From positions 184,384 to 248,383 of the forward strand of contig CAVXAV010000002.1 in the NCBI GenBank assembly GCA_963759865.1: a stretch of DNA of 64,000 bases. The letters run 5' to 3'. The notes under the pieces were generated by a model that was not told where the DNA came from, ran no database searches, and saw nothing but the letters and a program-made list of their open reading frames with translations. How positions within the stretch are numbered: position 1 is the first letter of the stretch; each line of letters opens with the position of its first letter. Made by a program: the position numbers and the translations under genes. Below are positions 10,806-56,071 of this stretch, in pieces. Source of the stretch: an uncultured bacterium (lineage in GTDB: Bacteria > Babelota > Babeliae > Babelales > Babelaceae).

Positions 10806-12335
10806 TTGGAACTCTCGAAAGAAGAAAATCTTTTTTATGACTTGCAATTGAATGCGGGGATGAAAACAATTACGCAAGAACTTGCAGGTGCATCAACCAT
10901 ATTTGTGCCTATTAATCGCGATGATCACTGGTTTACCTGCGTTATCACAAAAAGAGATAATGAATTCAGTCTTACCGTGGCGGATTCGCTTAATAAAAAT
11001 CGCATTACTGATCCTGCTATTACAAAAATCACTGAAACACTCGCATTCGAATTTAATAAAAAAGAAACTCCTCCTTCAAAACCAAAAAAGAAAGATCCTG
11101 CCGTAAAGAAAGATCATGCAGTAAGCGAAGAAACACCGACGCATACAAATGAAGAAAAAAAAGAAAAGCCTAATTATGATGCACCGCTTGCTCATTTTTC
11201 TCTAGAAGAATTACCAAAGCTGGAACAGTTTTTTGGGGGTCAAACACCCAATGATGTCATGGTACGTCTCAAGCTCCTTATTGATACGCCAGATAACCCG
11301 GCTAAGGTTGCAAAGACATCAATAAAAAACTGCTTACTCCTCTACGGCCCTCCAGGAACTGGCAAAAGTACTCTTGCACAGCTCATTGGTCGCATGGCTG
11401 GCTGGCGTATAGTTTTTGCTAACTGTGGCCGGTTTAGAACTGCCTACCAAGGTTCTTCCTATGCATTATTGAGGGAATTTTTCGATGAAGCACTCAAAAC
11501 ACCAAAATGCCTCATTATTTTGGATGAAATTGACTGTCTTGGATCAAAACTTGAGCCTCATAATAGCACTCAAGAGGATAACCGTGCTGTGAAAGTTCTT
11601 ATTGATTTGCTTGATTCAATACGCCATAACCCTGGTGTGTATGTAGTCGCCACAACAAACCATCCTGAAAAAATGGATGGTGCGATAGCCCGACGTTTTT
11701 ACTCACGAGAAGTTGCTCTTCCAAACCACGCTACGCGAACTCAGATACTCACGCATTATATGAGAGAGAATGATTTAAGAATCGAAGAGGGGGATGAACA
11801 TGCGGTATCTCCTCAATTCTTTAACGCCTTAGTAAATGCCACGTACGGCTTTAGCGGCGATGCTCTTGAAGACCTGATTGCTACAGCAAATCTCTATGTA
11901 AAAGCAAAATTACCACCCGAAGAAAATGTGGATATGAGCTTCTGGTTTAGTAGTTTTGAAAAAGATAAGCCCTGGTCTGATACGATATGGGGGCTTGCAG
12001 AGAATCCGTATGTTCCGGTGGTACACTTGCTAGGCGGCTATCAAGTAAGTACCATTGATAAGCATTTGTATTCACAGTATAAGCGCGTTTTGAAAGTGCG
12101 ACATGACATAGAAAATCGTGATTTTGAGAATGATACAAATATGAAGTGGATGAAACTTAAATGGCGCCATAAATTAAAGAGTGCGCTCGTAACAGCCCTC
12201 TCCTCATTTGGTCATGGCGTCATGACAAGTATTGCTGGAAAAGCAGTTGATAAAACGATTGAGGTAAGCAAACCTCCAGTGGGTGAGGCATATAAGTATG
12301 TCAAAAACTGGCTATCGTCGGCCGCCGCTGCCTAA
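10806..12335 (+). CDS. Classical AAA ATPase with divergent N-terminal domain (weak Ulp1/C48-like His-Asp remnant)
   Basis: Motifs present: Walker A (LLYGPPGTGKSTLA), Walker B (CLIILDEIDCLG), aromatic pore loop (AYQGSS) and second region of homology (VVATTNHPEKMDGAIARRF). The N-terminus has IFVPINRDDHWFTCVI...LTVADSLN. TTG start at 10806 sits 8 nt after AGGA, so the start is uncertain. Confidence 0.75.
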   Translation: MELSKEENLFYDLQLNAGMKTITQELAGASTIFVPINRDDHWFTCVITKRDNEFSLTVADSLNKNRITDPAITKITETLAFEFNKKETPPSKPKKKDPAVKKDHAVSEETPTHTNEEKKEKPNYDAPLAHFSLEELPKLEQFFGGQTPNDVMVRLKLLIDTPDNPAKVAKTSIKNCLLLYGPPGTGKSTLAQLIGRMAGWRIVFANCGRFRTAYQGSSYALLREFFDEALKTPKCLIILDEIDCLGSKLEPHNSTQEDNRAVKVLIDLLDSIRHNPGVYVVATTNHPEKMDGAIARRFYSREVALPNHATRTQILTHYMRENDLRIEEGDEHAVSPQFFNALVNATYGFSGDALEDLIATANLYVKAKLPPEENVDMSFWFSSFEKDKPWSDTIWGLAENPYVPVVHLLGGYQVSTIDKHLYSQYKRVLKVRHDIENRDFENDTNMKWMKLKWRHKLKSALVTALSSFGHGVMTSIAGKAVDKTIEVSKPPVGEAYKYVKNWLSSAAAA

Positions 12336-31540: not shown

Positions 31541-32212
31541 CTATCTTTTTTTAGTAACCCCTACTTTAGGGCACAAAGAATTTAAAACGCAGCGAGAGCA
31601 CCAGGGTGAAACAGGAAGGCATACATTTTGACCCCACATAACAAAAAGATGATTTAATGAAATCCACTCATCTTTAGGTACAATCTTTTGTAACTCGCGT
31701 TCAGTTTGCTCGGGCGTTTTTGTTTTCACCCAACCAAGCCGATTTGAAAGCCGATGTACGTGAGTATCAACACACAAAGCCGGTATACCAAATGCTTCTC
31801 CACGAACCAGATTCGCCGTTTTCCTGCCCACACCCTTAATTGAAAGCAAATCAGCTTCATTTGAAGGAACGTGGCCGCCAAAACGGGTAATAAGTACGCG
31901 AGAGACCTCGACCACAACCTGAGCTTTTTTACGATAAAAACCCAAAGGATAAAACAGCTCTTCAAGTTCATGCAAGGGCATCTGCAGCAGCTGCTCAGGA
32001 GTGCGCACTCGCGCAAAGAGCTTTTTTGAAACTTCGAAAGTAACCGGATCCCGCGCGCGTAGGCTGAGTAAACAAGAGATCAAAATTAAAAAAGGATCGC
32101 GTCCATAGAGTTCAACAAGCATAACAGACATCGGCTTATGCAAAGAAACCGTTGCCTTCTTTAAGAGTGCGAGTACTTGTAGCACATGTTGACGACGTTC
32201 AGATACATCCAT
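31541..32212 (-). CDS. nth: Endonuclease III
   Basis: HhH-GPD motif (IKGVGRKTANLV), catalytic Asp region (VDTHVHRLSNRLG) and C-terminal 4Fe-4S Cys cluster (CLPVSPWCSRCVLNSLC) are present. Confidence 0.9.
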   Translation of the reverse strand: MDVSERRQHVLQVLALLKKATVSLHKPMSVMLVELYGRDPFLILISCLLSLRARDPVTFEVSKKLFARVRTPEQLLQMPLHELEELFYPLGFYRKKAQVVVEVSRVLITRFGGHVPSNEADLLSIKGVGRKTANLVRGEAFGIPALCVDTHVHRLSNRLGWVKTKTPEQTERELQKIVPKDEWISLNHLFVMWGQNVCLPVSPWCSRCVLNSLCPKVGVTKKR

Positions 32213-32239: not shown

Positions 32240-32267
32240 AACCCGTATGGGGAAAACCATACGGGTT
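32240..32267 (-). terminator. Terminator downstream of the small-peptide ORF
   Basis: 11-bp stem AACCCGTATGG-(6 nt)-CCATACGGGTT. On the minus strand it is followed by TTTCCATTT. Confidence 0.5.
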
Positions 32268-32322: not shown

Positions 32323-32448
32323 TCACCCTGGAGGAGGTGCAAGCATTCCTTTTTTTGTTGTGTCATGCTTTATTGCTTTTTGGGCAATTACCGTACTTGC
32401 AGATGCAAGTAATACCATTAAAAGTGCGCTTAAGCATAGCTTTGCCAT
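32323..32448 (-). CDS. Small secreted peptide candidate (41 aa), below the ORF-track cutoff
   Basis: An AAGGAG RBS lies 5 nt before ATG 32448. The product is MAKLCLSALLMVLLASASTVIA|QKAIKHDTTKKGMLAPPPG, with TGA at 32323-32325. A hairpin lies downstream. Confidence 0.45.
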   Translation of the reverse strand: MAKLCLSALLMVLLASASTVIAQKAIKHDTTKKGMLAPPPG

Positions 32449-32631
32449 TGCGACTCCTTCTTGAGAGTTAAACTGTCAAACAACCACTACAACTCTGTTT
32501 AAAACACTACTCCCTTTTCCTTTTTTTGCTTCAGTTAATTTGACTTTATTTAAAACTCGAGACAATATAATTTTACAAAATTGCTCGAATAAGTCTTTAA
32601 CTAAGACCTAAGAATAGTACAGTTTTAGTAA

Positions 32632-35370
32632 ATGTCAACACTTTTTTTTAGGAAAAAAATGTCTGATGCATTGGTGCTTCTAATCGACATATTGAGCAGC
32701 AAACAGCTGCCTTTGTGCATTGAGCTTTTATCATTTTTTTGTAAGTTGCTTATTGTTTTAACCTGCATTCATTTTACTTTTAAGATCACCTCGCATAAGC
32801 TCCCGTTGGTATTCCTTATAATTTTTCTTACCTGCTCATTCTTAAATGATGCCGTCAATATAATTTATACTGTAAAACGAGGAATCCTCCATATCAGTGA
32901 AGATTTTGCCTGGTTTACTTTTTTGATGCGCTTTGTATGGGGATTGAATCTAAGTCAGTACCAGTCGCTCGCCTTATTCATCGAAACATTCATGTTAAAG
33001 AGGGTACATTTTAAATGGACTTATATAATACATGCGCTTTTTAATGTAAGCATCTCGTCAATTTTCATGTACTTAGCATTTTTTAAATATGGAATACCAG
33101 GCGCAAATCCTGAAACTCTCAAATTGGAACTCGGACTCATACACACCATATACATATATCTTCCTGTACTTTTTATGCCAGTATTTTACAAAATTTTCAA
33201 ACACAATACAGGCTATCTTGTAATGCCGCGAATTCTAACTCATCAACTACGATCCTTAACCAATTTTGTGGTTCCCTATCTCTTTTTTGATATGCTTGGC
33301 AATTGCTCTACAACGCTCTTTCCACAAATAAAATCCTTCCAATTCCTCTTTTTCACGCTGAGCAACATCCTTAGCACTTTCCCCTTGTTTTTTGTAGGAA
33401 GAAGAATGTTGGGATTGCGATTTTTAAATTTAAGGCAAGATGTACAATCCAAGGAAAAATTCAACTTTCTTTCACAATTTAAAGATATTCTCGAACAATT
33501 GAGTTATGCAACGGCATTAAAAGAACTAGCACACCTCAATCAAACATTTTTCCAGGTTGCTTTTAATATCCCCCTTGGCAGAACGAGGCTGTATATAAGG
33601 AAAACAGAACCAGAAAAAGATGAGCATGGATATTATGATATTGCTCATATCAGCTCCAAAGTCGAAAATTTCATCAGCAAAGCTGATAATCGCGCTTTAT
33701 TCATGCTTAACTCTGCAAAAATATTTATCCGCGATGAGATAGATTTTTCGCATTATTATAATGATGAGCAGGTAAGCAAAGAAATTCTTGATTTTCTTGA
33801 TATCATAAATGCTGATATCTTCTTGCCAATCTATGAGCGAAATTCAATTATTGCCTATATTATTATCGAACGCGACGCAAGGCCTGAAAAGCTTTATACC
33901 AATAAAGAGCGGGATGAGATGCTTGTATTTACCAGCTATCTAAGCAATATCATCAATATATTGAAATATAGCAATATTGAGGCCATGCATCACAGGCACA
34001 AAGAACTTACAGAGGAATTATATCATAAGCATCGAGAAATAAATCAATATAAAGAAAGCATCCGCTTTTTCTTACGTTCAAATAAAGAACGAAAAATTGG
34101 CATTCTCTTTTATAAGCATAGGCGATTTACCTTTGCAAACGAAGCAGCACAAGAGCTTGTTGGCATGGATCTTAATACAAATATGGGCCATCTGCTTACC
34201 CAAGCATTTAAAACGGTAGCACGCCGTGTGCAAGAATTTAAAACAGCCCAAACAACGTTTGCTCACGACAGCGATGGAAACAGGATCATTATCGCAGGCA
34301 TTCCAAGCCTAGAGGAGTATACCACGATCATGCTCATCTATTATCCAGAAATCTCTGATATAATTAAATCCCAATTTGACCAACTTAAAGACCCATCAAG
34401 TTGGGATTATGTACTCTATTTAGAAACAACCCAATCTGGCCAGCTTATCAACCAACTCATACCAGGATCGGGTGAAAAGATCCTTAATTTTAAAGTTCAT
34501 CTCCTTTCATCAGCTCTTTCTAAAAAGGCAACACTTATTGACATGCCTGAAAATGATCTACTCCCTACCGTTGAAATACTGCATCATATAAGCTTACGAC
34601 AGACGCTTCACTGCATTAAATTAACAGGACCTGAAAAGAACGACGAGGTTGCGCTTAAATTATTTGGCATCAATCCATTGCTCCAAAAAGACGCACCGGA
34701 ACCCCTTCTTGCCAAATTAAACGATGTGGGGACCCTTTTTATTGAAAATATTGAGTACTTAAGCCTTGAAGCACAAGACTATCTTGCAGAATTCATTCTC
34801 TATGGATTCTTTTATAAATTCAAAAGTGACCATAAGGTATTTAGCAATGTACGCATCATCTGCTCGACAACTAAGGACCTTTTGGAATTAGTAAACGAAG
34901 GAAAATTTTCAAAGACTTTGCATAACGAACTCAAAAAGATGTCACTTACACTTCCTTCACTTTCAAGCTTTTCTGAATCTGAAATCAATGAACTGGCTCA
35001 AGGCTTTGCAGAACAGCTCGAGACAACCCAAACGTATAAGAACTTACTTGCATTAACAGAGAGAGATAAGCATAAATTAAGCTCCGATAGGCCTTTAAGC
35101 TTACAAGAATTTAAAGAAAAAATTCATCAACTCCTTGTACAAAAATCAACAAAGCACAAAATTCATGAAACAACCAATTTCGATCCTGCCTACAATGTCA
35201 CAGAACCCGATATTGCTCACGCAGTCCGTTTAGGCAAAAAAGCCCTTAAGGACCCACAGATCATGGCTATGCTCTGGAAAAAATTTAAAAACCAAAATAA
35301 GATTGCCACCCTTCTTGGTGTTAATCGCTCATCCGTGAACAGACGTTGTCAAGAGTATGACCTGCACTAA
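32632..35370 (+). CDS. Membrane-anchored GAF-PAS regulator with degenerate sigma54-activator AAA+ module and Fis-type HTH (paralog 1)
   Basis: 912 aa. About 270 aa of N-terminal polytopic TM region is followed by a GAF-like region (ADIFLPIYERNSIIAYIIIERDA) and a PAS-like region (IGILFYKHRRFTFANEAAQELVGMD). The EBP-like core reads GTLFIENIEYLSLEAQDYL and VRIICSTTKDLLELVNEGKF. The C-terminal HTH reads KIATLLGVNRSSVNRRCQEY. Confidence 0.75.
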   Translation: MSTLFFRKKMSDALVLLIDILSSKQLPLCIELLSFFCKLLIVLTCIHFTFKITSHKLPLVFLIIFLTCSFLNDAVNIIYTVKRGILHISEDFAWFTFLMRFVWGLNLSQYQSLALFIETFMLKRVHFKWTYIIHALFNVSISSIFMYLAFFKYGIPGANPETLKLELGLIHTIYIYLPVLFMPVFYKIFKHNTGYLVMPRILTHQLRSLTNFVVPYLFFDMLGNCSTTLFPQIKSFQFLFFTLSNILSTFPLFFVGRRMLGLRFLNLRQDVQSKEKFNFLSQFKDILEQLSYATALKELAHLNQTFFQVAFNIPLGRTRLYIRKTEPEKDEHGYYDIAHISSKVENFISKADNRALFMLNSAKIFIRDEIDFSHYYNDEQVSKEILDFLDIINADIFLPIYERNSIIAYIIIERDARPEKLYTNKERDEMLVFTSYLSNIINILKYSNIEAMHHRHKELTEELYHKHREINQYKESIRFFLRSNKERKIGILFYKHRRFTFANEAAQELVGMDLNTNMGHLLTQAFKTVARRVQEFKTAQTTFAHDSDGNRIIIAGIPSLEEYTTIMLIYYPEISDIIKSQFDQLKDPSSWDYVLYLETTQSGQLINQLIPGSGEKILNFKVHLLSSALSKKATLIDMPENDLLPTVEILHHISLRQTLHCIKLTGPEKNDEVALKLFGINPLLQKDAPEPLLAKLNDVGTLFIENIEYLSLEAQDYLAEFILYGFFYKFKSDHKVFSNVRIICSTTKDLLELVNEGKFSKTLHNELKKMSLTLPSLSSFSESEINELAQGFAEQLETTQTYKNLLALTERDKHKLSSDRPLSLQEFKEKIHQLLVQKSTKHKIHETTNFDPAYNVTEPDIAHAVRLGKKALKDPQIMAMLWKKFKNQNKIATLLGVNRSSVNRRCQEYDLH

Positions 35371-35388
35371 ATTTTCCTATTTGAAAAA

Positions 35389-35416
35389 TTGACACTTTTT
35401 CAAAAAACCCTATACT
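35389..35416 (+). promoter_or_regulatory. Sigma70-type promoter candidate for paralog 2
   Basis: TTGACA (35389-35394), a 16-nt spacer, then TATACT (35411-35416), about 55 nt upstream of ATG 35472. Confidence 0.4.
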
Positions 35417-35471
35417 CTTATTTGTAGATACAAGCAGTGTCTTATGGGTTCTTTCATGAGGTTTAGGGAGC

Positions 35472-38177
35472 ATGTCATACGTACTAGACTTTTTGCATGC
35501 CTTAATAAGGAGTAAGAAGCTTTTTTTGAGCATTGAACTTTTATCCTTGTTTTGTAAATTATTCATCTTGCTCACGTGCATACGTTTTATTTTTAAAACG
35601 GCAACTCAACGGGCACTCATTTTTGTCTTGATGACATTTCTTTCCCTCTCCTTATTGACCGACTGTGCTAACATTATATATACAGTCAAACGGGGAATCT
35701 TTGGTATCACTCAAGACTTTCCTTTATTTTCTTTCTTTCTAAGAGTTGTATGGGGCCTTGCAGTCACCCAGTATCAAGCTATTGCCCTCTTTTTGATGGC
35801 TCTGATGCGTAAGAAAATAGAATGGAAGCACTGGTACATTCCTCATATTCTCGTTAATGCTGGGATCTCTTCTATCTTTATGTACCATGCGTTTTTTAAA
35901 TATGGTGTTTCAGGAGCAAGCCCTGAGACCTTGCCCCGAGAACTTGCACTTATACATACTATCTACCTCTATACGCCATTTCTTTTTATACCGATATTTT
36001 ACAAAATCTTTAAAAAAAGAAACCCTAATGAGCATATCCCCCGTATCCTTACGCATCAGCTGCGATCTCTTTCCTATTTTTTTATCCCCTATCTTATCTG
36101 TGAAACGCTCAGCAATTGTGCTGGCATCCCTGCGAGCTTCACATTCTCTTGTCTAAAATCATGGGAATACTTATTTTTCACCCTCAGCTCACTTTTAAGT
36201 ACGTACCCGCTATTTTTAGTGGGCAAAAGAATCCTTGGGTTGCGCTTTTTGAACTTGCGTAGAGATGTTGAATCTAAAGAAAAATTTAATTTTCTTGCTC
36301 GGTTTAAAGAAATCCTCGATCAATTAAATTATGCGACAGCTTTGAAAGAGCTAGCGCAGCTCAATCAAACATTTTTCCATACGGCCTTTGCAGTCCCCTT
36401 GGGTAGAACAAAGCTTTATTTTAGAAAAACAGACACTCAGATTCCTTATTATGATAGTCAGATAGGCGCCACAGTGGAATCCTTTCTAGAACAACGCGAA
36501 GCTCGATCGTTAGCAACTCTTCACAGTCTAAAAATTTTTATTCGAGATGAGATTGCTTTTAACAATTTCTATGAAAATGACCCAATTCACGAAGAAATTC
36601 TCGCTTTCATGGATGCTATCAATGCAGACATTTTTCTACCAATCTACGAACGTACAACCATCATTGGCTACAGCATAATCGAGCGCAATGCTCGCCCTGA
36701 TAAGCTTTTTACAAATAAAGAACGGGATGAGATGCTCGTGTTTACCAGCTATTTGGGCAATATTACTACCATCTTAAAATACAGTACGCTTGAAACAATG
36801 TGGCAAAGGCATAAAGAGCTTACCGATGAGCTTTACCACAAGCATCAAGAAATTAATCAATACAAAGAAGCACTACGCTTTTTCCTCCGTTCAGGCAATG
36901 ACCGCAAAATCGGGATTGTTTTTTTCAAACAACGACACTTTAGCTTCGCAAATCAAGCGGCTAAAGAACTGGTGGGTATGGATCTTAATACCCAGGCAGG
37001 TCATACGGTAAGCCGTACCTTTAAAACCGTAGCTCACCATGTACAGGAATATAAAACTGCCTATACGCTCTCGGCGCATGATAGCAAAGGCAACCGCATC
37101 ATCATAGCAGGTGTTCCCAGCCTGGAAGATTCGACCGTGATTTTACTCGTGTATTATCCAGAAGTATCTGATATTATTAAAGCCCAATTTGATCAACTGA
37201 AAGATCCTTCCGCTTGGGACTATGTTCTCTATCTTGAAACAACACAATCGGGGCAGCTTATCAACAGGCTCATAGCCGGTTCATCCGAAAAAATTCTCTC
37301 GTTTAAGATTGATCTGCTTTCAACAGCACTTTCAAAAAAAGCAACATTGCTTGATATGCCTCCTGAAGATACTGCAGCAACTGTTGAAATTCTGCATCAT
37401 ATTAGCTTGAGACAAACACTCCAGTGCATGACCCTCACAGGGCCTGAGAAAAATAATGAAATAGCGGTCATTCTCTTTGGGCTCAACCCCCTTCTTGAAA
37501 AAGATAGCCAGTCGCTTCTTAAAAAATTGCATGATGTGGGAACACTCTTTATTGAAAACATCGAATATCTTAGCCTTGAAACACAAAATGCACTTGCACA
37601 CTTCATTTCCTCTGGCTATTTTTACCTATTTAAAAGCGATATTAAAGTGTTTAGCAATGTACGCATTATTTGTTCAACCACAAAAAATCTCTCTACGCTC
37701 GTACACGAAGGAACCTTTTCGCATAGTCTCTATACCGAGCTTAAAAAAACCTCTTTAGCGTTCCCCTCACTCCAAAGCTTTTCAGAATCTGAACTACACG
37801 AACTTGCTCAAGGCTTTGCAGAGCAAATTGAAACAAGTCAGACGTATAAAAGTTTGCTTGCTCTCACACAAAGAGATAAGCTCACCTTGCAAAACGATCG
37901 TCCTTTAAGCTTAAAAGAACTTAAGGAAGCCGTTCACCACTTGCTCGTTGAAAAATCTACCAAACATAACATCAGTGAAATAGTATTAGATCCCGCGTAT
38001 GATGTCGCTGAGCCTGATATAGCACATGCCGTACGGCTTGGGAAAAAAGCACTTAAGGACCCTCAAATAATGACACTCCTCTGGAATAAGTTCAAAAACC
38101 AAAATAAAATTGCTCTCCTGCTTGGATGCAACCGTTCGTCGGTCAATCGTAGATGCCAAGAATATAATCTCAAATGA
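35472..38177 (+). CDS. Membrane-anchored GAF-PAS regulator with degenerate sigma54-activator AAA+ module and Fis-type HTH (paralog 2)
   Basis: 901 aa, collinear with paralog 1 throughout with the same degenerate motifs (GTLFIENIEYLSLETQNAL, VRIICSTTKNLSTLVHEGTF, KIALLLGCNRSSVNRRCQEY). Confidence 0.75.
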   Translation: MSYVLDFLHALIRSKKLFLSIELLSLFCKLFILLTCIRFIFKTATQRALIFVLMTFLSLSLLTDCANIIYTVKRGIFGITQDFPLFSFFLRVVWGLAVTQYQAIALFLMALMRKKIEWKHWYIPHILVNAGISSIFMYHAFFKYGVSGASPETLPRELALIHTIYLYTPFLFIPIFYKIFKKRNPNEHIPRILTHQLRSLSYFFIPYLICETLSNCAGIPASFTFSCLKSWEYLFFTLSSLLSTYPLFLVGKRILGLRFLNLRRDVESKEKFNFLARFKEILDQLNYATALKELAQLNQTFFHTAFAVPLGRTKLYFRKTDTQIPYYDSQIGATVESFLEQREARSLATLHSLKIFIRDEIAFNNFYENDPIHEEILAFMDAINADIFLPIYERTTIIGYSIIERNARPDKLFTNKERDEMLVFTSYLGNITTILKYSTLETMWQRHKELTDELYHKHQEINQYKEALRFFLRSGNDRKIGIVFFKQRHFSFANQAAKELVGMDLNTQAGHTVSRTFKTVAHHVQEYKTAYTLSAHDSKGNRIIIAGVPSLEDSTVILLVYYPEVSDIIKAQFDQLKDPSAWDYVLYLETTQSGQLINRLIAGSSEKILSFKIDLLSTALSKKATLLDMPPEDTAATVEILHHISLRQTLQCMTLTGPEKNNEIAVILFGLNPLLEKDSQSLLKKLHDVGTLFIENIEYLSLETQNALAHFISSGYFYLFKSDIKVFSNVRIICSTTKNLSTLVHEGTFSHSLYTELKKTSLAFPSLQSFSESELHELAQGFAEQIETSQTYKSLLALTQRDKLTLQNDRPLSLKELKEAVHHLLVEKSTKHNISEIVLDPAYDVAEPDIAHAVRLGKKALKDPQIMTLLWNKFKNQNKIALLLGCNRSSVNRRCQEYNLK

Positions 38178-38247: not shown

Positions 38248-39087
38248 ATGCAGCATCCCTCTTTCTCTTTTATTACTTCATTCATCACCTTTCTCGCACA
38301 AGAAAAAAGAGCGAGCGAGCATACGCAATTTGCCTATAAACGGGATCTTGAACAATTTTTTCATTACGCAACGACAAGCAACTACCACGATCTTCAAAAA
38401 ACGGCAGAAAAATTTTTTGCATCGCTCACCGTTCAAGGAATAACCGCAAGCTCGATTGCACGTAAAATCTCATGCTTCAATTCTTTCAAAAAGTATCTCA
38501 AAAGAGAAGGAATTGCATTTCCCCTGGCAGTCAAACGCCCTCCCGTTTTGCTTGCAGATCCCCTTTCACTTCCCCTTAAGGACGTTCTTACTATTCTCGA
38601 TCTTGTAGGCATCGGTGACATCCCCTCCAAAAGGCCTTATCGAGATACAGCACTGCTCGAAGTTATTTATGCGACAGGAATTACTTGCCATGAAGTGGTG
38701 ACCATAGAAATAAATTGCATTGATTTTACTGAACAATCCATTATCATAAGAAATAAGAGAAAAAAAGAACGGAGCGTTCCTTTTGGTGCACAGGCAGCCG
38801 TAAGCATAAAAGCTTATATAGAAAACGAAAGAAAACCCATACAAAATGGTCACGAGAAGCTTTTTTTGAACCACAGGAACAAGCCATTAACGCCCCGATC
38901 GGTTCAAAGAATATGCCTTTTATTTAGACAGATATTGGAAAAAAAACGGAATGTAACACCCTCGGTTCTTCGTTCCTCATGTGCGGCACACTTGATCACG
39001 AATGGGGCACCTCTAGAACAAGTACAGGAATTATTGGGTCATAAAACACGTATAAGTACACAACGGTATAAAAAGGTACGCACCTAG
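38248..39087 (+). CDS. Tyrosine recombinase, XerC/XerD-like
   Basis: N-terminal SAM-like core-binding region (SEHTQFAYKRDLEQFF). Catalytic region includes RDTALLEVIYATG, LRSSCAAHLITNG, LLGH and the terminal STQRY tyrosine. Confidence 0.75.
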   Translation: MQHPSFSFITSFITFLAQEKRASEHTQFAYKRDLEQFFHYATTSNYHDLQKTAEKFFASLTVQGITASSIARKISCFNSFKKYLKREGIAFPLAVKRPPVLLADPLSLPLKDVLTILDLVGIGDIPSKRPYRDTALLEVIYATGITCHEVVTIEINCIDFTEQSIIIRNKRKKERSVPFGAQAAVSIKAYIENERKPIQNGHEKLFLNHRNKPLTPRSVQRICLLFRQILEKKRNVTPSVLRSSCAAHLITNGAPLEQVQELLGHKTRISTQRYKKVRT

Positions 39088-40815
39088 ATGGAATTACTTC
39101 CTCGAATCTTAAGCGCTCGGCTTAAAATAGTCACAGCTCTCGTTCTTATTGGGTTTGTGAGCATAGCACTCTATCTTTTTCATCTACAAATACAGCATAT
39201 GCAGCTCTTTTTTAACTTATCGCAGAAAAATTTTCTCCGGCAGGAAAAAGTTGCGTGCCCGCGGGGAAATATTATTGATATCAATGGTACTATCCTGGCC
39301 ACGAATCGGCCTGTTTATACAGTCTATTGGCAAGGGACGGGAGAAAAACATCTGACCCAAACTCAGCAGCAACTCATTACGACACTGATTTCTCTTTTTG
39401 AGTTACCGCACTCTTTTATGGCTCAAGTACGTAGTAGTGAACACAAATGTACTCGTATACTCGTTGCAGCCGATATTACGTTTGACCAGCTCACCTGCCT
39501 GCTTGAAAAATTTCCACATGAAAAGAATATTTTTCTTGAAAAGTCCTACAAGCGTTGCTATCCCTACAAAGATTTAGCATGCCATATTGTGGGATATTTA
39601 GGTCTTGACCCCGAATCAACAGGAAAGATGGGTCTCGAATTACAATGCAATAAAGTACTTAAAGGCCAATCGGGCAAAATAATAAAAATCATAAATTCTA
39701 TTGGCCGTCACATAGATGCGCATACGGTTTATAGCGGACTAGCCGGTAAAACACTCCAAACAACATTAGATCTTGAGCTTCAACAGATTGCTGAAGAAGT
39801 TTTCCCCCAAGAGTATGAGGGCTGCTGTTTAAGCATGGATGACCAAGGAGGTCTTGAAGTTCTGCTCTCTCGACCAACTTTTGATCCTTCAATGTTTCTA
39901 AGATCGATAAGCGAACCCGAATGGCACCACCTTCAAGAAAAAAAAGGATTTATCAATCGTGCCTTTAGTGCCTGTTATCCTCCCGCATCCCTTTTTAAAC
40001 TTGTTACTTTGTCTGCTGCTCTTGAAACGGGCCTTATCTTAACCAGTCAGCGTTGGCATTGTATCGGACATACAGAATTTAAAGGACGCAATTACCACTG
40101 CAATAACAGATCAGGCCATGGCATCGTCTCAACGGAACAGGCTTTAGCGCATTCCTGCAACATCCCTTTTTATGATATAGGTAAAAGAATCAAAATTGAT
40201 ACCCTGGCTGAGTATGCCAACCGCCTTGGGCTGGGCGTTAAAACGGGGCTCTTACTTCCCGAAAAAACGGGACTCATTCCCACACGCGCGTGGAAAAAAA
40301 GGGTAAAAAAAGAAGCGTGGTGGCCGGGTGAAACTCTTTCGGCTGCAATAGGGCAAAGCTCCTTACTGGTAACCCCCATCCAAGTAGCGACCATGATATC
40401 TGCACTTTCTACCGGTTACAAGGTACGTCCACGCATTCTTGTAGAAGAACCAGTGGTGAGAGAGCCACTTGATTTAGATGCATCAGTGCTTTCATTCTTA
40501 CAACAGTGCCTTACGTCAGTTATTAAACAAGGAACAGCGACTCATCTTAAACATCTTAACAACTTTAAAATAAGCGGCAAAACAGGTACGGCTCAAACCT
40601 GCTCTCTTGAAAAGCAGACCCTTGCAAAACGGCATCTGCATCATGGCTATTTTGTTGCTCACTTTCAGTATAAAAAAGAAAAGCCCCGCACTCTTATGAT
40701 CTTTGTTGAACATGCGGGCTCTTCCTTGGTAGCACTACGTATTGCACAACGATTTCTTACAAAATTTGCCCATCTTATGGACAAGCGCACTGCCCACATT
40801 CCCGCAGCCGCATGA
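39088..40815 (+). CDS. mrdA: Penicillin-binding protein 2 (transpeptidase)
   Basis: N-terminal TM anchor plus SxxK (ASLFK), SxN (HSCN) and KTG (GKTGTA) motifs. Confidence 0.85.
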   Translation: MELLPRILSARLKIVTALVLIGFVSIALYLFHLQIQHMQLFFNLSQKNFLRQEKVACPRGNIIDINGTILATNRPVYTVYWQGTGEKHLTQTQQQLITTLISLFELPHSFMAQVRSSEHKCTRILVAADITFDQLTCLLEKFPHEKNIFLEKSYKRCYPYKDLACHIVGYLGLDPESTGKMGLELQCNKVLKGQSGKIIKIINSIGRHIDAHTVYSGLAGKTLQTTLDLELQQIAEEVFPQEYEGCCLSMDDQGGLEVLLSRPTFDPSMFLRSISEPEWHHLQEKKGFINRAFSACYPPASLFKLVTLSAALETGLILTSQRWHCIGHTEFKGRNYHCNNRSGHGIVSTEQALAHSCNIPFYDIGKRIKIDTLAEYANRLGLGVKTGLLLPEKTGLIPTRAWKKRVKKEAWWPGETLSAAIGQSSLLVTPIQVATMISALSTGYKVRPRILVEEPVVREPLDLDASVLSFLQQCLTSVIKQGTATHLKHLNNFKISGKTGTAQTCSLEKQTLAKRHLHHGYFVAHFQYKKEKPRTLMIFVEHAGSSLVALRIAQRFLTKFAHLMDKRTAHIPAAA

Positions 40816-40869: not shown

Positions 40870-41148
40870 TTATGCAGGATGAGCTGCCTGATTAATTCTT
40901 TTAGCTAACCGACCCAGTTTACGAGCAGCCGTATTTTTATGCATAATGCCTTTACCCTTAGCCCGAGCAAGTTTTGCCGCTACATCGTTTAAAAGCTCCT
41001 GGCTTTTAAGTACATCGATTGATTTCCCTTCAAGAGAAGCTAACACTTTCTTAATCGCTGTTTTAATTGAGGTTCTGCGAGCTAGATTACGAATGCGTCG
41101 TTTTTCATTTTGTTTTGCTGCTTTTTTAGCAGATGAAGTATTTGCCAT
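40870..41148 (-). CDS. rpsT: 30S ribosomal protein S20
   Basis: MANTSSAKKAAKQNEKRRIRNLARRTSIKTAIKK is a typical S20 N-terminus. Length is 92 aa. Confidence 0.9.
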   Translation of the reverse strand: MANTSSAKKAAKQNEKRRIRNLARRTSIKTAIKKVLASLEGKSIDVLKSQELLNDVAAKLARAKGKGIMHKNTAARKLGRLAKRINQAAHPA

Positions 41149-55944: not shown

Positions 55945-55974
55945 GGGATGCGCTCCTTACATCGTATGTATTAA

Positions 55975-56055
55975 GGAAGCTTATACAGAACATCGCTACT
56001 CGTGCTGCTTCCTTTCAGACCTGACACAGTAAGCATCTAGTTCTTATAAGCTTCC
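55975..56055 (-). ncRNA. ffs: Signal recognition particle RNA (small 4.5S type)
   Basis: Minus strand reads GGAAGCTTATAAGAAC...GTGTCAGGTCTGAAAGGAAGCAGCAC...GTTCTGTATAAGCTTCC. The helix-8 core matches the conserved GUCAGGUCCGGAAGGAAGCAGC with a GAAA tetraloop. The 5' and 3' ends pair over about 16 bp. It lies directly upstream of dnaX. Confidence 0.8.
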
Positions 56056-56071
56056 AACTTTTAGGTCATTT

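Follow-up and report, generated by a model that had tools for sequence, protein, structure and literature searches.

The DNA analyzed here is a 64-kb window from a Dependentiae (TM6) bacterium that contains two tandem open reading frames (ORFs) on the same strand, at 32632–35370 (912 aa) and 35472–38177 (901 aa), separated by a gap of 101 nt. An earlier note on this DNA had described them as collinear paralogs, each combining a multi-pass membrane domain, sensor-like regions, a degenerate AAA+ module of the enhancer-binding protein (EBP) type and a Fis-type helix-turn-helix (HTH) in a single chain. BLASTP aligns the two proteins end to end with 67% identity, 81% positives and 10 gap positions, in agreement with that description, and all motif strings quoted in the note were recovered at their coordinates in both paralogs; the note's reading of the genes is borne out in its main points.

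The start codons required some attention. The BLASTP alignment begins at Met10 of the 912-aa ORF, the database version of paralog 1 (P0003) is 903 aa long, and the upstream ATG at 32632, which the note had taken as the start, falls within a conserved noncoding element. For these reasons paralog 1 most likely begins at ATG 32659. The public gene call for paralog 2 (P0001, 848 aa) places the start 53 codons inside the ORF, which would cost the protein two conserved transmembrane (TM) helices. Its relatives show homology starting at residue 1 of the ORF, which makes 35472 the preferable start.

Domain organization of the paralogs

In the AlphaFold2 model of paralog 2 (mean pLDDT 79.6), seven long helices are located between residues 15 and 257, and a separate model of residues 1–300 forms a seven-helix bundle (pLDDT 81.3, pTM 0.77). 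The N-terminal membrane domain is thus predicted to be multi-pass, with seven helices. Reading the sequence against the model helices, we found basic residues grouped in alternate loops: KTATQR, KKIEWKH, KKRNPNEHIPR and, following TM helix 7, GKRILGLRFLNLRR. This pattern agrees with an N-out/C-in topology in which the external loops are very short. Within the domain of paralog 2, Arg91 and Pro190 are invariant, and Gln102, Glu157 and Gln196 are nearly so.

A Foldseek search of the membrane-domain model against the PDB gave no match at E ≤ 0.001. The closest folds are eukaryotic G protein-coupled receptors (GPCRs), with E values of 4e-3 or worse, TM-scores of 0.36–0.51, root-mean-square deviations of 6–10 Å and sequence identities of 9–17%. 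Because these matches are weak, they appear to reflect similar topology, not demonstrated homology. The family shares with GPCRs and with bacterial 7TMR-DISM proteins a predicted up-down seven-helix bundle in the N-out/C-in orientation, but unlike them it gives no significant fold or Pfam 7TM match; no Pfam TM or 7TM sensor family was matched at E ≤ 5 in 40 members. Using a profile of the membrane domain to search 1.84 billion representative proteins, we obtained 400 proteins at E ≤ 1e-3. Among the 150 matches listed, the domain almost always starts no later than about residue 30, the proteins are ~900 aa long or shorter (the latter possibly fragments), and no other architecture carries it.

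For the module that follows the membrane domain, the GAF-like assignment is weak: GAF_2 is the most recurrent weak match among relatives (8 of 50, best E 0.0018), but GAF_2 is not matched in the window copy itself; a profile of the region gave no match to PDB sequences. The coiled segment corresponds to a continuous helix in the model of paralog 2. For the PAS-like region the model predicts five strands; the profile scores are weak (PAS_8 in 9 of 40 members, best E 0.0071; PAS_9 in 3 of 40). A full-length Foldseek search returned AAA+ matches alone. Between the PAS-like and AAA+ modules lies a family-signature linker in which Asp583, Leu586, Tyr587, Leu588, Thr590, Thr591 and Gly594 are invariant among 40 members.

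At the C terminus, a four-helix Fis-type HTH is predicted from the AlphaFold2 helices and from alignments that extend through the C-terminal ends of TyrR, DhaR and NifA; several NCBIfam matches reach the last residues of the protein. Matches to the HTH_8 profile itself are weak and occur in 10 of 40 members (best E 0.022). Conservation along the protein is highest in its final 30 residues, which include the recognition helix NRSSVNRR and have a mean majority-residue frequency of 0.87. With TM segments and a DNA-binding domain in one chain, the paralogs have, at the level of prediction, the composition of one-component membrane transcription factors.

Motif replacement in the AAA+ module

Several pieces of evidence identify the segment between the linker and the HTH as a homolog of the EBP central domain, as first proposed: (i) Pfam Sigma54_activat (PF00158) scores 38.9 and 40.5 bits in the two paralogs, compared with a cut-off of 20.2, and is matched in 40 of 40 relatives. 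(ii) Sigma54_activat and Sigma54_activ_2 are the only Pfam models matched above cut-off in these window proteins, both over the C-terminal half of the model (profile positions ~90–167 of 168 for Sigma54_activat). (iii) A family profile built from 40 members (A1) matches NtrC1 with an E value of 4.9e-19, from just after the P-loop, and NtrC4 (PDB entry 3dzd) over residues 137–356; given this span, the entire AAA+ domain is present, not its second half alone. (iv) The closest structures to the AlphaFold2 model of paralog 2 identified by Foldseek are NtrX, PspF, NtrC1, FlrC, FleQ and DmpR (E values of 3e-9 to 4e-7), with TM-scores on the target of up to 0.68 and of about 0.67 to PspF and NtrC1. 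The structure and sequence matches include NtrX and VpsR. Partial NCBIfam matches to PspF, DhaR, TyrR and NtrX reach 52–62 bits against equivalog cut-offs of 443–600, so that in a test of orthology to these named EBPs no member comes near the cut-offs.

The catalytic signatures of this domain were surveyed in 114 family members, namely the family proteins from 78 loci described below plus those of the window. In the Walker A slot, GESGVGKE of NtrC1 is replaced by the family consensus [ML]P[ED]xD[LV]xP, and in the Walker B slot GTLFLDEI is replaced by GTLFI[QKE]N[IV]. The L1 loop, ELFGYEKGAFTGA in NtrC1, has the family consensus LFG[IL]NP...; the window loops, LFG[IL]NPLL..., are shorter than that of NtrC1. 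The arginine-finger slot has the consensus FS..L..EL, in which the first arginine is serine in 95 of the 114 members and the second is glutamate in 89. Neither GxxxxGK[ST], sought anywhere in the protein, nor a GAFTGA-like hexapeptide is found in any of the 114, and no intact Walker A or Walker B emerged on alignment to NtrC1. The replacement of Walker A, Walker B, GAFTGA and the arginine fingers that the note had reported for both copies is therefore a property of the whole family.

The substitutes are themselves conserved: Asp633 occurs in 114/114 members, Asn696 in 109/114 and Ser750 in 95/114, and the majority-residue frequency in the AAA+ region is about 0.63–0.79 as opposed to 0.32–0.58 in the membrane domain. 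In the former nucleotide pocket, Lys623, Asp633 and Arg647 are invariant. On the basis of these alignments, the module appears to be a conserved pseudo-ATPase in which the determinants of nucleotide handling and of sigma-54 contact have been replaced.

A canonical sigma-54 EBP, which remodels the sigma-54 holoenzyme in an ATP-driven manner, would be in keeping with the above-threshold Sigma54_activat score and with the automatic NCBI names of the family. However, the P-loop, the Walker B DE pair, the sigma-54-contacting GAFTGA loop and both trans-acting arginine positions are absent from all the members examined, the Pfam match is to the C-terminal half of the model, and TGGCAC-N5-TTGCW (−24/−12) sites are not in excess in the window (1 found, 2.9 expected). 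Canonical sigma-54 activation is not expected of such a protein, and we give this explanation almost no credence.

The conserved pocket could also be interpreted as a receptor for a different ligand, for which FleQ and VpsR offer analogies: cyclic di-GMP (c-di-GMP), for instance, or some other nucleotide second messenger. The AAA+ domain would then serve as a sensor. Three invariant polar residues in the former pocket are consistent with this idea, and both c-di-GMP-controlled EBPs and atypical EBPs provide a precedent (PMC6158489), but the acidic substitute for the P-loop ([ED]xD) would be unfavorable for phosphate binding. We regard such a role as having a small chance of being correct; it would be compatible with the explanation favored below.

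Table 1 Positions of features in the window, and of one repeat in related loci (L numbers).
Feature	Position	Strand	Description
Paralog 1 leader	32614..32640	+	−10-like TAGTAC, 13 nt, GTCAACA; version of the window's clade
Paralog 1 coding sequence	32659..35370	+	903 aa from ATG 32659; mechanical ORF from 32632
Paralog 1 seven-helix membrane domain	32701..33417	+	about aa 15–253; predicted, collinear with paralog 2
Paralog 1 GAF-like module	33505..33972	+	aa 283–438
Paralog 1 PAS-like module	34090..34350	+	aa 478–564
Paralog 1 family-signature linker	34390..34446	+	DPSSWDYVLYLETTQSGQL
Paralog 1 pseudo-AAA+ (EBP central-domain homolog)	34474..35166	+	
Paralog 1 P-loop slot	34543..34566	+	MPENDLLP; without Walker A
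Paralog 1 L1 slot	34657..34695	+	KLFGINPLLQKDA; without GAFTGA
Paralog 1 Walker B slot	34729..34752	+	GTLFIENI; EN in place of DE
Paralog 1 arginine-finger slot	34906..34932	+	FSKTLHNEL
Paralog 1 C-terminal HTH domain	35206..35355	+	four-helix, Fis-type
Paralog 1 HTH string	35299–35358		KIATLLGVNRSSVNRRCQEY
Inverted repeat	35380..35404	.	TTTGAAAAATTG / CACTTTTTCAAA; overlaps −35 hexamer
Sigma-70-like promoter match	35389..35416	+	TTGACA-16-TATACT; inter-paralog gap; 11/12 positions
Paralog 2 coding sequence	35472..38177	+	901 aa
Paralog 2 seven-helix membrane domain	35514..36242	+	aa 15–257; predicted N-out/C-in
Paralog 2 GAF-like module	36330..36785	+	aa 287–438; model: alpha/beta domain, terminal beta-hairpin plus long helix
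Paralog 2 long signaling helix / coiled segment	36786..36899	+	aa 439–476; model: continuous helix aa 440–473
Paralog 2 PAS-like module	36903..37163	+	aa 478–564; model: five strands, intervening helices, aa 481–561
Paralog 2 family-signature linker	37203..37259	+	DPSAWDYVLYLETTQSGQL; short helical, highly conserved
Paralog 2 pseudo-AAA+	37287..37976	+	aa 606–835; whole-domain homolog of NtrC1/NtrC4/PspF; model: alpha/beta and lid subdomains
Paralog 2 P-loop slot	37356..37379	+	MPPEDTAA; without Walker A
Paralog 2 L1 slot	37470..37508	+	ILFGLNPLLEKDS; without GAFTGA
Paralog 2 Walker B slot	37539..37562	+	GTLFIENI; EN in place of DE
Paralog 2 arginine-finger slot	37716..37742	+	FSHSLYTEL; aligned to NtrC1 FREDLYYRL
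Paralog 2 C-terminal HTH domain	38013..38162	+	aa 848–897; four-helix, Fis-type; model: four helices
Paralog 2 HTH string	38106–38165		KIALLLGCNRSSVNRRCQEY
nth	31541–32212	−	window neighbor
XerC/D-like recombinase	38248–39087	+	window neighbor
PBP2	39088–40815	+	window neighbor
rpsT	40870–41148	−	window neighbor
TAGCAT-N7-ATGCTA perfect repeat	L037 9713–9731; L047 8604–8622; L061 9774–9792; L063 9772–9790; L064 9635–9653		about 210–370 nt upstream of family gene

Selection, distribution and gene neighborhood

For the window pair, dN is 0.24 and dS is saturated; where dS could be computed (1.5–2.7), the ratio of dN to dS, omega, is 0.06–0.09. Because this saturation precludes a whole-gene dN/dS, closer family pairs were used. 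Eight such pairs from other genomes, which include orthologs of the upstream and the downstream copy as well as two recent within-genome duplicates, give omega values of 0.03–0.19, indicating that both genes are under strong purifying selection. The loss of every catalytic signature might otherwise suggest decay, either of the AAA+ modules or of the entire genes, into relics without a selected function. Both frames nevertheless remain open over ~900 codons, the substitute motifs are conserved across the phylum, conservation is higher in the AAA+ region than in the membrane domain, and the omega values are far from the neutral, pseudogene-like evolution that the note had asked about. The probability of decay is negligible.

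The two window paralogs differ most in the membrane domain (57% identity) and least in the HTH (82%), and their recognition helices are almost identical. A shared recognition helix and a membrane sensor that diverges most, together with duplicates that arose repeatedly and were retained, suggest that the paralogs probably route different inputs to the same DNA sites, or work as heteromers.

A protein search returned more than 433 relatives; among the 120 matches listed, most are ~900 aa long and all carry PF00158. Where database names are given, these proteins are called 'sigma 54-interacting transcriptional regulator' (Candidatus Dependentiae, Babeliales, Babela massiliensis), and the Joint Genome Institute name for relatives is 'transcriptional regulator of aromatic amino acid metabolism'. 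The first of these names is contradicted by the motifs described above, and it is misleading in that it could prompt the false inference of sigma-54 regulons in these genomes. In a scan of one genome per GTDB species, 175 encoding stretches were found, of which 78 were kept as loci (L001–L078) for context, copy and motif counts. Some of the 78 loci bear Dependentiae, Babeliales or TM6 in their titles, and others are unclassified metagenome-assembled genomes (MAGs). A few are third-party annotation MAGs labeled 'uncultured Pseudomonadota'; those checked, e.g., L017, have the same neighbor genes. Judging from these searches, the family is found only in Dependentiae/Babeliales, the distribution that the note had proposed to survey, and it is functionally uncharacterised. 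The note had also known of no described family with this combination of domains. This is correct insofar as a literature search for membrane-anchored EBPs gave no described example, but hundreds of members are already present, automatically named, in the databases.

The genes also share a neighborhood: nth (endonuclease III, divergent), one to three tandem copies of the family gene, an XerC/D-like tyrosine recombinase, a PBP2 transpeptidase, and rpsT on the opposite strand. Among the 78 loci, nth is present in 65, the recombinase in 56, PBP2 in 61 and ribosomal protein S20 (rpsT) in 47, and the gene order is kept in most of them although the proteins are only about 40% identical. In the window the stop codon of the recombinase (39087) adjoins the start of PBP2 (39088), so the two genes look co-transcribed. 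At least two tandem copies are found by tblastn in 38 of the 78 loci, and at least two intact ORFs in 33. A neighbor-joining tree resolves an old split, present in many lineages, between two clades, 'copy 1', which is conserved, and 'copy 2', which evolves faster, together with separate, younger duplications in the lineage of the window. Dispersed copies occur in some genomes; for instance, L004 shares a contig with L009, and L036 with L066. The family locus of the closest relative genome (L001, 8117–14000) contains several tblastn fragments and an 802-aa ORF, which could all be frameshifted copies or long-read assembly errors.

The conservation of this neighborhood raises the alternative that the protein is not primarily a gene regulator but a tether or organizer between DNA and membrane, for example one coupling chromosome resolution to envelope growth or division. 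Such a role would agree with the flanking xerC/D-like and pbp2 genes and with the predicted anchoring of a DNA-binding protein in the membrane, and a recognition helix that is near-invariant across the phylum and between paralogs would suit a conserved architectural site better than diversifying operators. On the other hand, synteny in small, slowly rearranging genomes need not reflect functional coupling, the sensor modules (7TM, GAF-like and PAS) and the EBP ancestry favor signal-dependent regulation, and the surroundings of xer and pbp2 yielded no site motif. We therefore consider a tether unlikely.

Pseudo-enzymes often regulate active paralogs, and by that precedent the protein could act through protein–protein contacts only, poisoning or modulating an intact EBP ring or RNA polymerase, with a vestigial HTH. 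However, no part of the protein is more strongly conserved than the HTH, and no intact EBP paralog is present in the 78 loci or the window, which cover parts of the genomes. This explanation is quite improbable.

Leader element and a putative regulatory role

Directly upstream of many family genes we found a conserved leader consisting of an (A)GTATAAT −10 box, 13 nt, and RAnRKCAAYA (most commonly AAGATCAATA), usually followed after 1–5 nt by the ATG. It precedes family starts in L017, L019, L025, L026, L039, L042, L046, L049, L051, L052, L060, L067, L070 and others, and a GTCAACA version is common to paralog 1 of the window and L002, L003, L004, L006, L007 and L023. In about 1.7 Mb of sequence (loci plus window) there are 52 occurrences of the exact 9-mer AGATCAATA, 18 of them directly before family start codons, with one further occurrence (L055) probably also before a family start. 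Of 112 family genes, 47 (42%) have the RKCAAYA core in the 40 nt before the start, compared with 33 of 852 other ORFs from these loci (3.9%); inside the window, the core is too short to be informative. Upstream k-mer enrichment consists mostly of the −10 box (AGTATAAT), leaving the RKCAAYA leader as the sole family-specific element. This leader hints at autoregulation. The sigma-70-like −10 boxes upstream of family genes tell how these genes are transcribed, not what their products target.

The sigma-70-like promoter that the note had assigned to paralog 2 does exist as a match to the consensus at 11 of 12 positions, but promoter-like matches are no more frequent in the region than in shuffled sequence (16 found, 17.3 expected), and it is therefore to be read as a consensus match only. 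Among spaced inverted repeats in 111 upstream regions (arms of 5–6 nt, spacers of 0–14), none exceeded shuffled sequence except TAGCAT-N7-ATGCTA. As a candidate family operator this repeat was rejected, being limited to five loci that cluster in the tree and absent from the window. Rfam and tRNA scans revealed no known RNA element beside the genes. The gap between the paralogs is bridged by an 86-aa antisense ORF (35321–35581, minus strand) that extends into the ends of both genes; one public assembly annotates it as a gene, but it has no Pfam match and is probably spurious.

In terms of known systems, the family is best classed as an extreme, membrane-anchored variant of the atypical EBPs exemplified by TyrR, NtrX and VpsR. 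The known atypical EBPs are soluble, have REC or ACT/PAS N-termini and, as far as is known, retain the P-loop, and TyrR and NtrX bind ATP. Like them, the family joins an EBP-type AAA+ domain, in which GAFTGA is lost or altered, to a predicted Fis-type HTH; unlike them, it has a fully replaced P-loop, has lost all four catalytic signatures and begins with a predicted seven-helix membrane domain. From canonical EBPs (NtrC1, NtrC4, PspF, DmpR, NifA) it retains the AAA+ fold, the order of elements and the predicted sensor–AAA+–HTH layout, and its GAF-like and PAS-like modules would be comparable to the GAF or PAS sensors of NifA, FhlA and NorR; in contrast to them, it lacks the ATPase motifs and the sigma-54 contact loop and is predicted to be membrane-anchored. 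ToxR, CadC, TcpP and BcrR also combine sensor, membrane anchor and DNA-binding domain in one polypeptide that reads DNA at the membrane, the DNA-binding domain (of winged-helix or XRE type) being N-terminal and the TM helices numbering one to four. In the present family, by contrast, the HTH is C-terminal and about 640 residues from the 7-TM bundle, with the AAA+-derived module between. Atypical EBPs that lack GAFTGA and partner sigma-70 RNA polymerase as activators or repressors are an established category, which includes E. coli TyrR, P. putida PhhR, R. capsulatus HupR, B. abortus NtrX, V. cholerae VpsR and M. xanthus HsfA, and some of its members have non-consensus Walker motifs (PMC6158489).

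The best explanation of these observations, and one that we hold to be reasonably probable, is that the paralogs are membrane-integral one-component regulators in which a nucleotide-free AAA+ scaffold serves regulation at sigma-70-type promoters. In this scheme, the family-specific seven-helix bundle would sense a membrane-level or small-molecule cue, and the signal would pass through the GAF-like module, the long signaling helix and the PAS-like module to the EBP-derived AAA+ domain. The latter would act as a nucleotide-independent oligomerization or allosteric scaffold that sets the C-terminal Fis-type HTH on DNA. Because the AAA+ domain is without nucleotide and sigma-54 determinants, we infer that regulation would take place at sigma-70-type promoters, either as activator or as repressor as in atypical EBPs, and the genes' own promoters would probably be among the targets.

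Several points count against this explanation. DNA binding, membrane insertion and regulatory output are predictions, and the GAF, PAS and HTH_8 profile scores are weak throughout. A remodeled pocket with invariant Lys623, Asp633 and Arg647 could bind some ligand. None of the six window ORFs of 438–523 aa that were scanned is RpoN, the window representing 64 kb of the genome; literature searches for rpoN in Dependentiae gave no result. Upstream of paralog 2 there is no clear copy of the leader element. Finally, Fis-type HTH dimers usually bind inverted repeats. The leader is not a dyad and is located at the position of a ribosome-binding site, where action at the RNA level is possible. It could therefore be an autoregulatory operator just past the transcription start or an RNA/translation element.

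A more far-reaching version of the membrane-integral regulator can be put forward tentatively. The family may be a phylum-specific fusion of receptor and transcription factor, in which a 7TM sensor of GPCR-like topology, not described before, is linked directly to DNA by a ring or dimer of nucleotide-free AAA+ modules. It would then be a principal, autoregulated switch by which the obligately host-dependent Dependentiae respond to environmental or host cues, and recurrently duplicated tandem paralogs would form heteromers that join two inputs at one conserved DNA site. If true, the family would be the first EBP derivative known to be embedded in the membrane and a case of an AAA+ motor fully turned into a passive signaling scaffold.

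Even without this extension, the family is of interest in two respects. In the genome of a cultured Dependentiae isolate, merR, yebC and fmdB alone are listed as transcriptional regulators, and the family is unmentioned (PMC6561590). Dependentiae genomes are small, yet throughout the phylum they retain one to three copies of this ~900-aa regulator under strong constraint. With so few listed regulators and such constrained, retained copies, the family is likely a major control point of the host-associated lifestyle of these bacteria. For the AAA+/EBP field, it offers an unusually clean natural experiment in which the fold has been kept while the nucleotide-handling and sigma-54-contacting elements have been swapped for conserved residues, and it would extend the series of atypical EBPs to a nucleotide-free, membrane-embedded endpoint.

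Three further features of the window were noted. Between nth and paralog 1, a 41-aa ORF (MAKLCLSALLMVLLASASTVIAQKAIKHDTTKKGMLAPPPG; 32323–32448, minus strand) has a signal-peptide-like N-terminus, is preceded by AAGGAG and is followed by a perfect 11-bp terminator-like hairpin (32240–32267); it may be a gene for a small secreted peptide. A small signal recognition particle RNA (55969–56058, minus strand) and tRNA-Phe, Leu, Cys, Ala and Ser genes are housekeeping elements, none of them near the paralogs. Lastly, a 509-aa protein (10806–12335, plus strand) has both a Ulp1-type (Peptidase_C48) segment and a classical AAA ATPase domain. The Ulp1-type protease family is best known from eukaryotes, and the protein may be effector-like, as expected for a host-associated bacterium.

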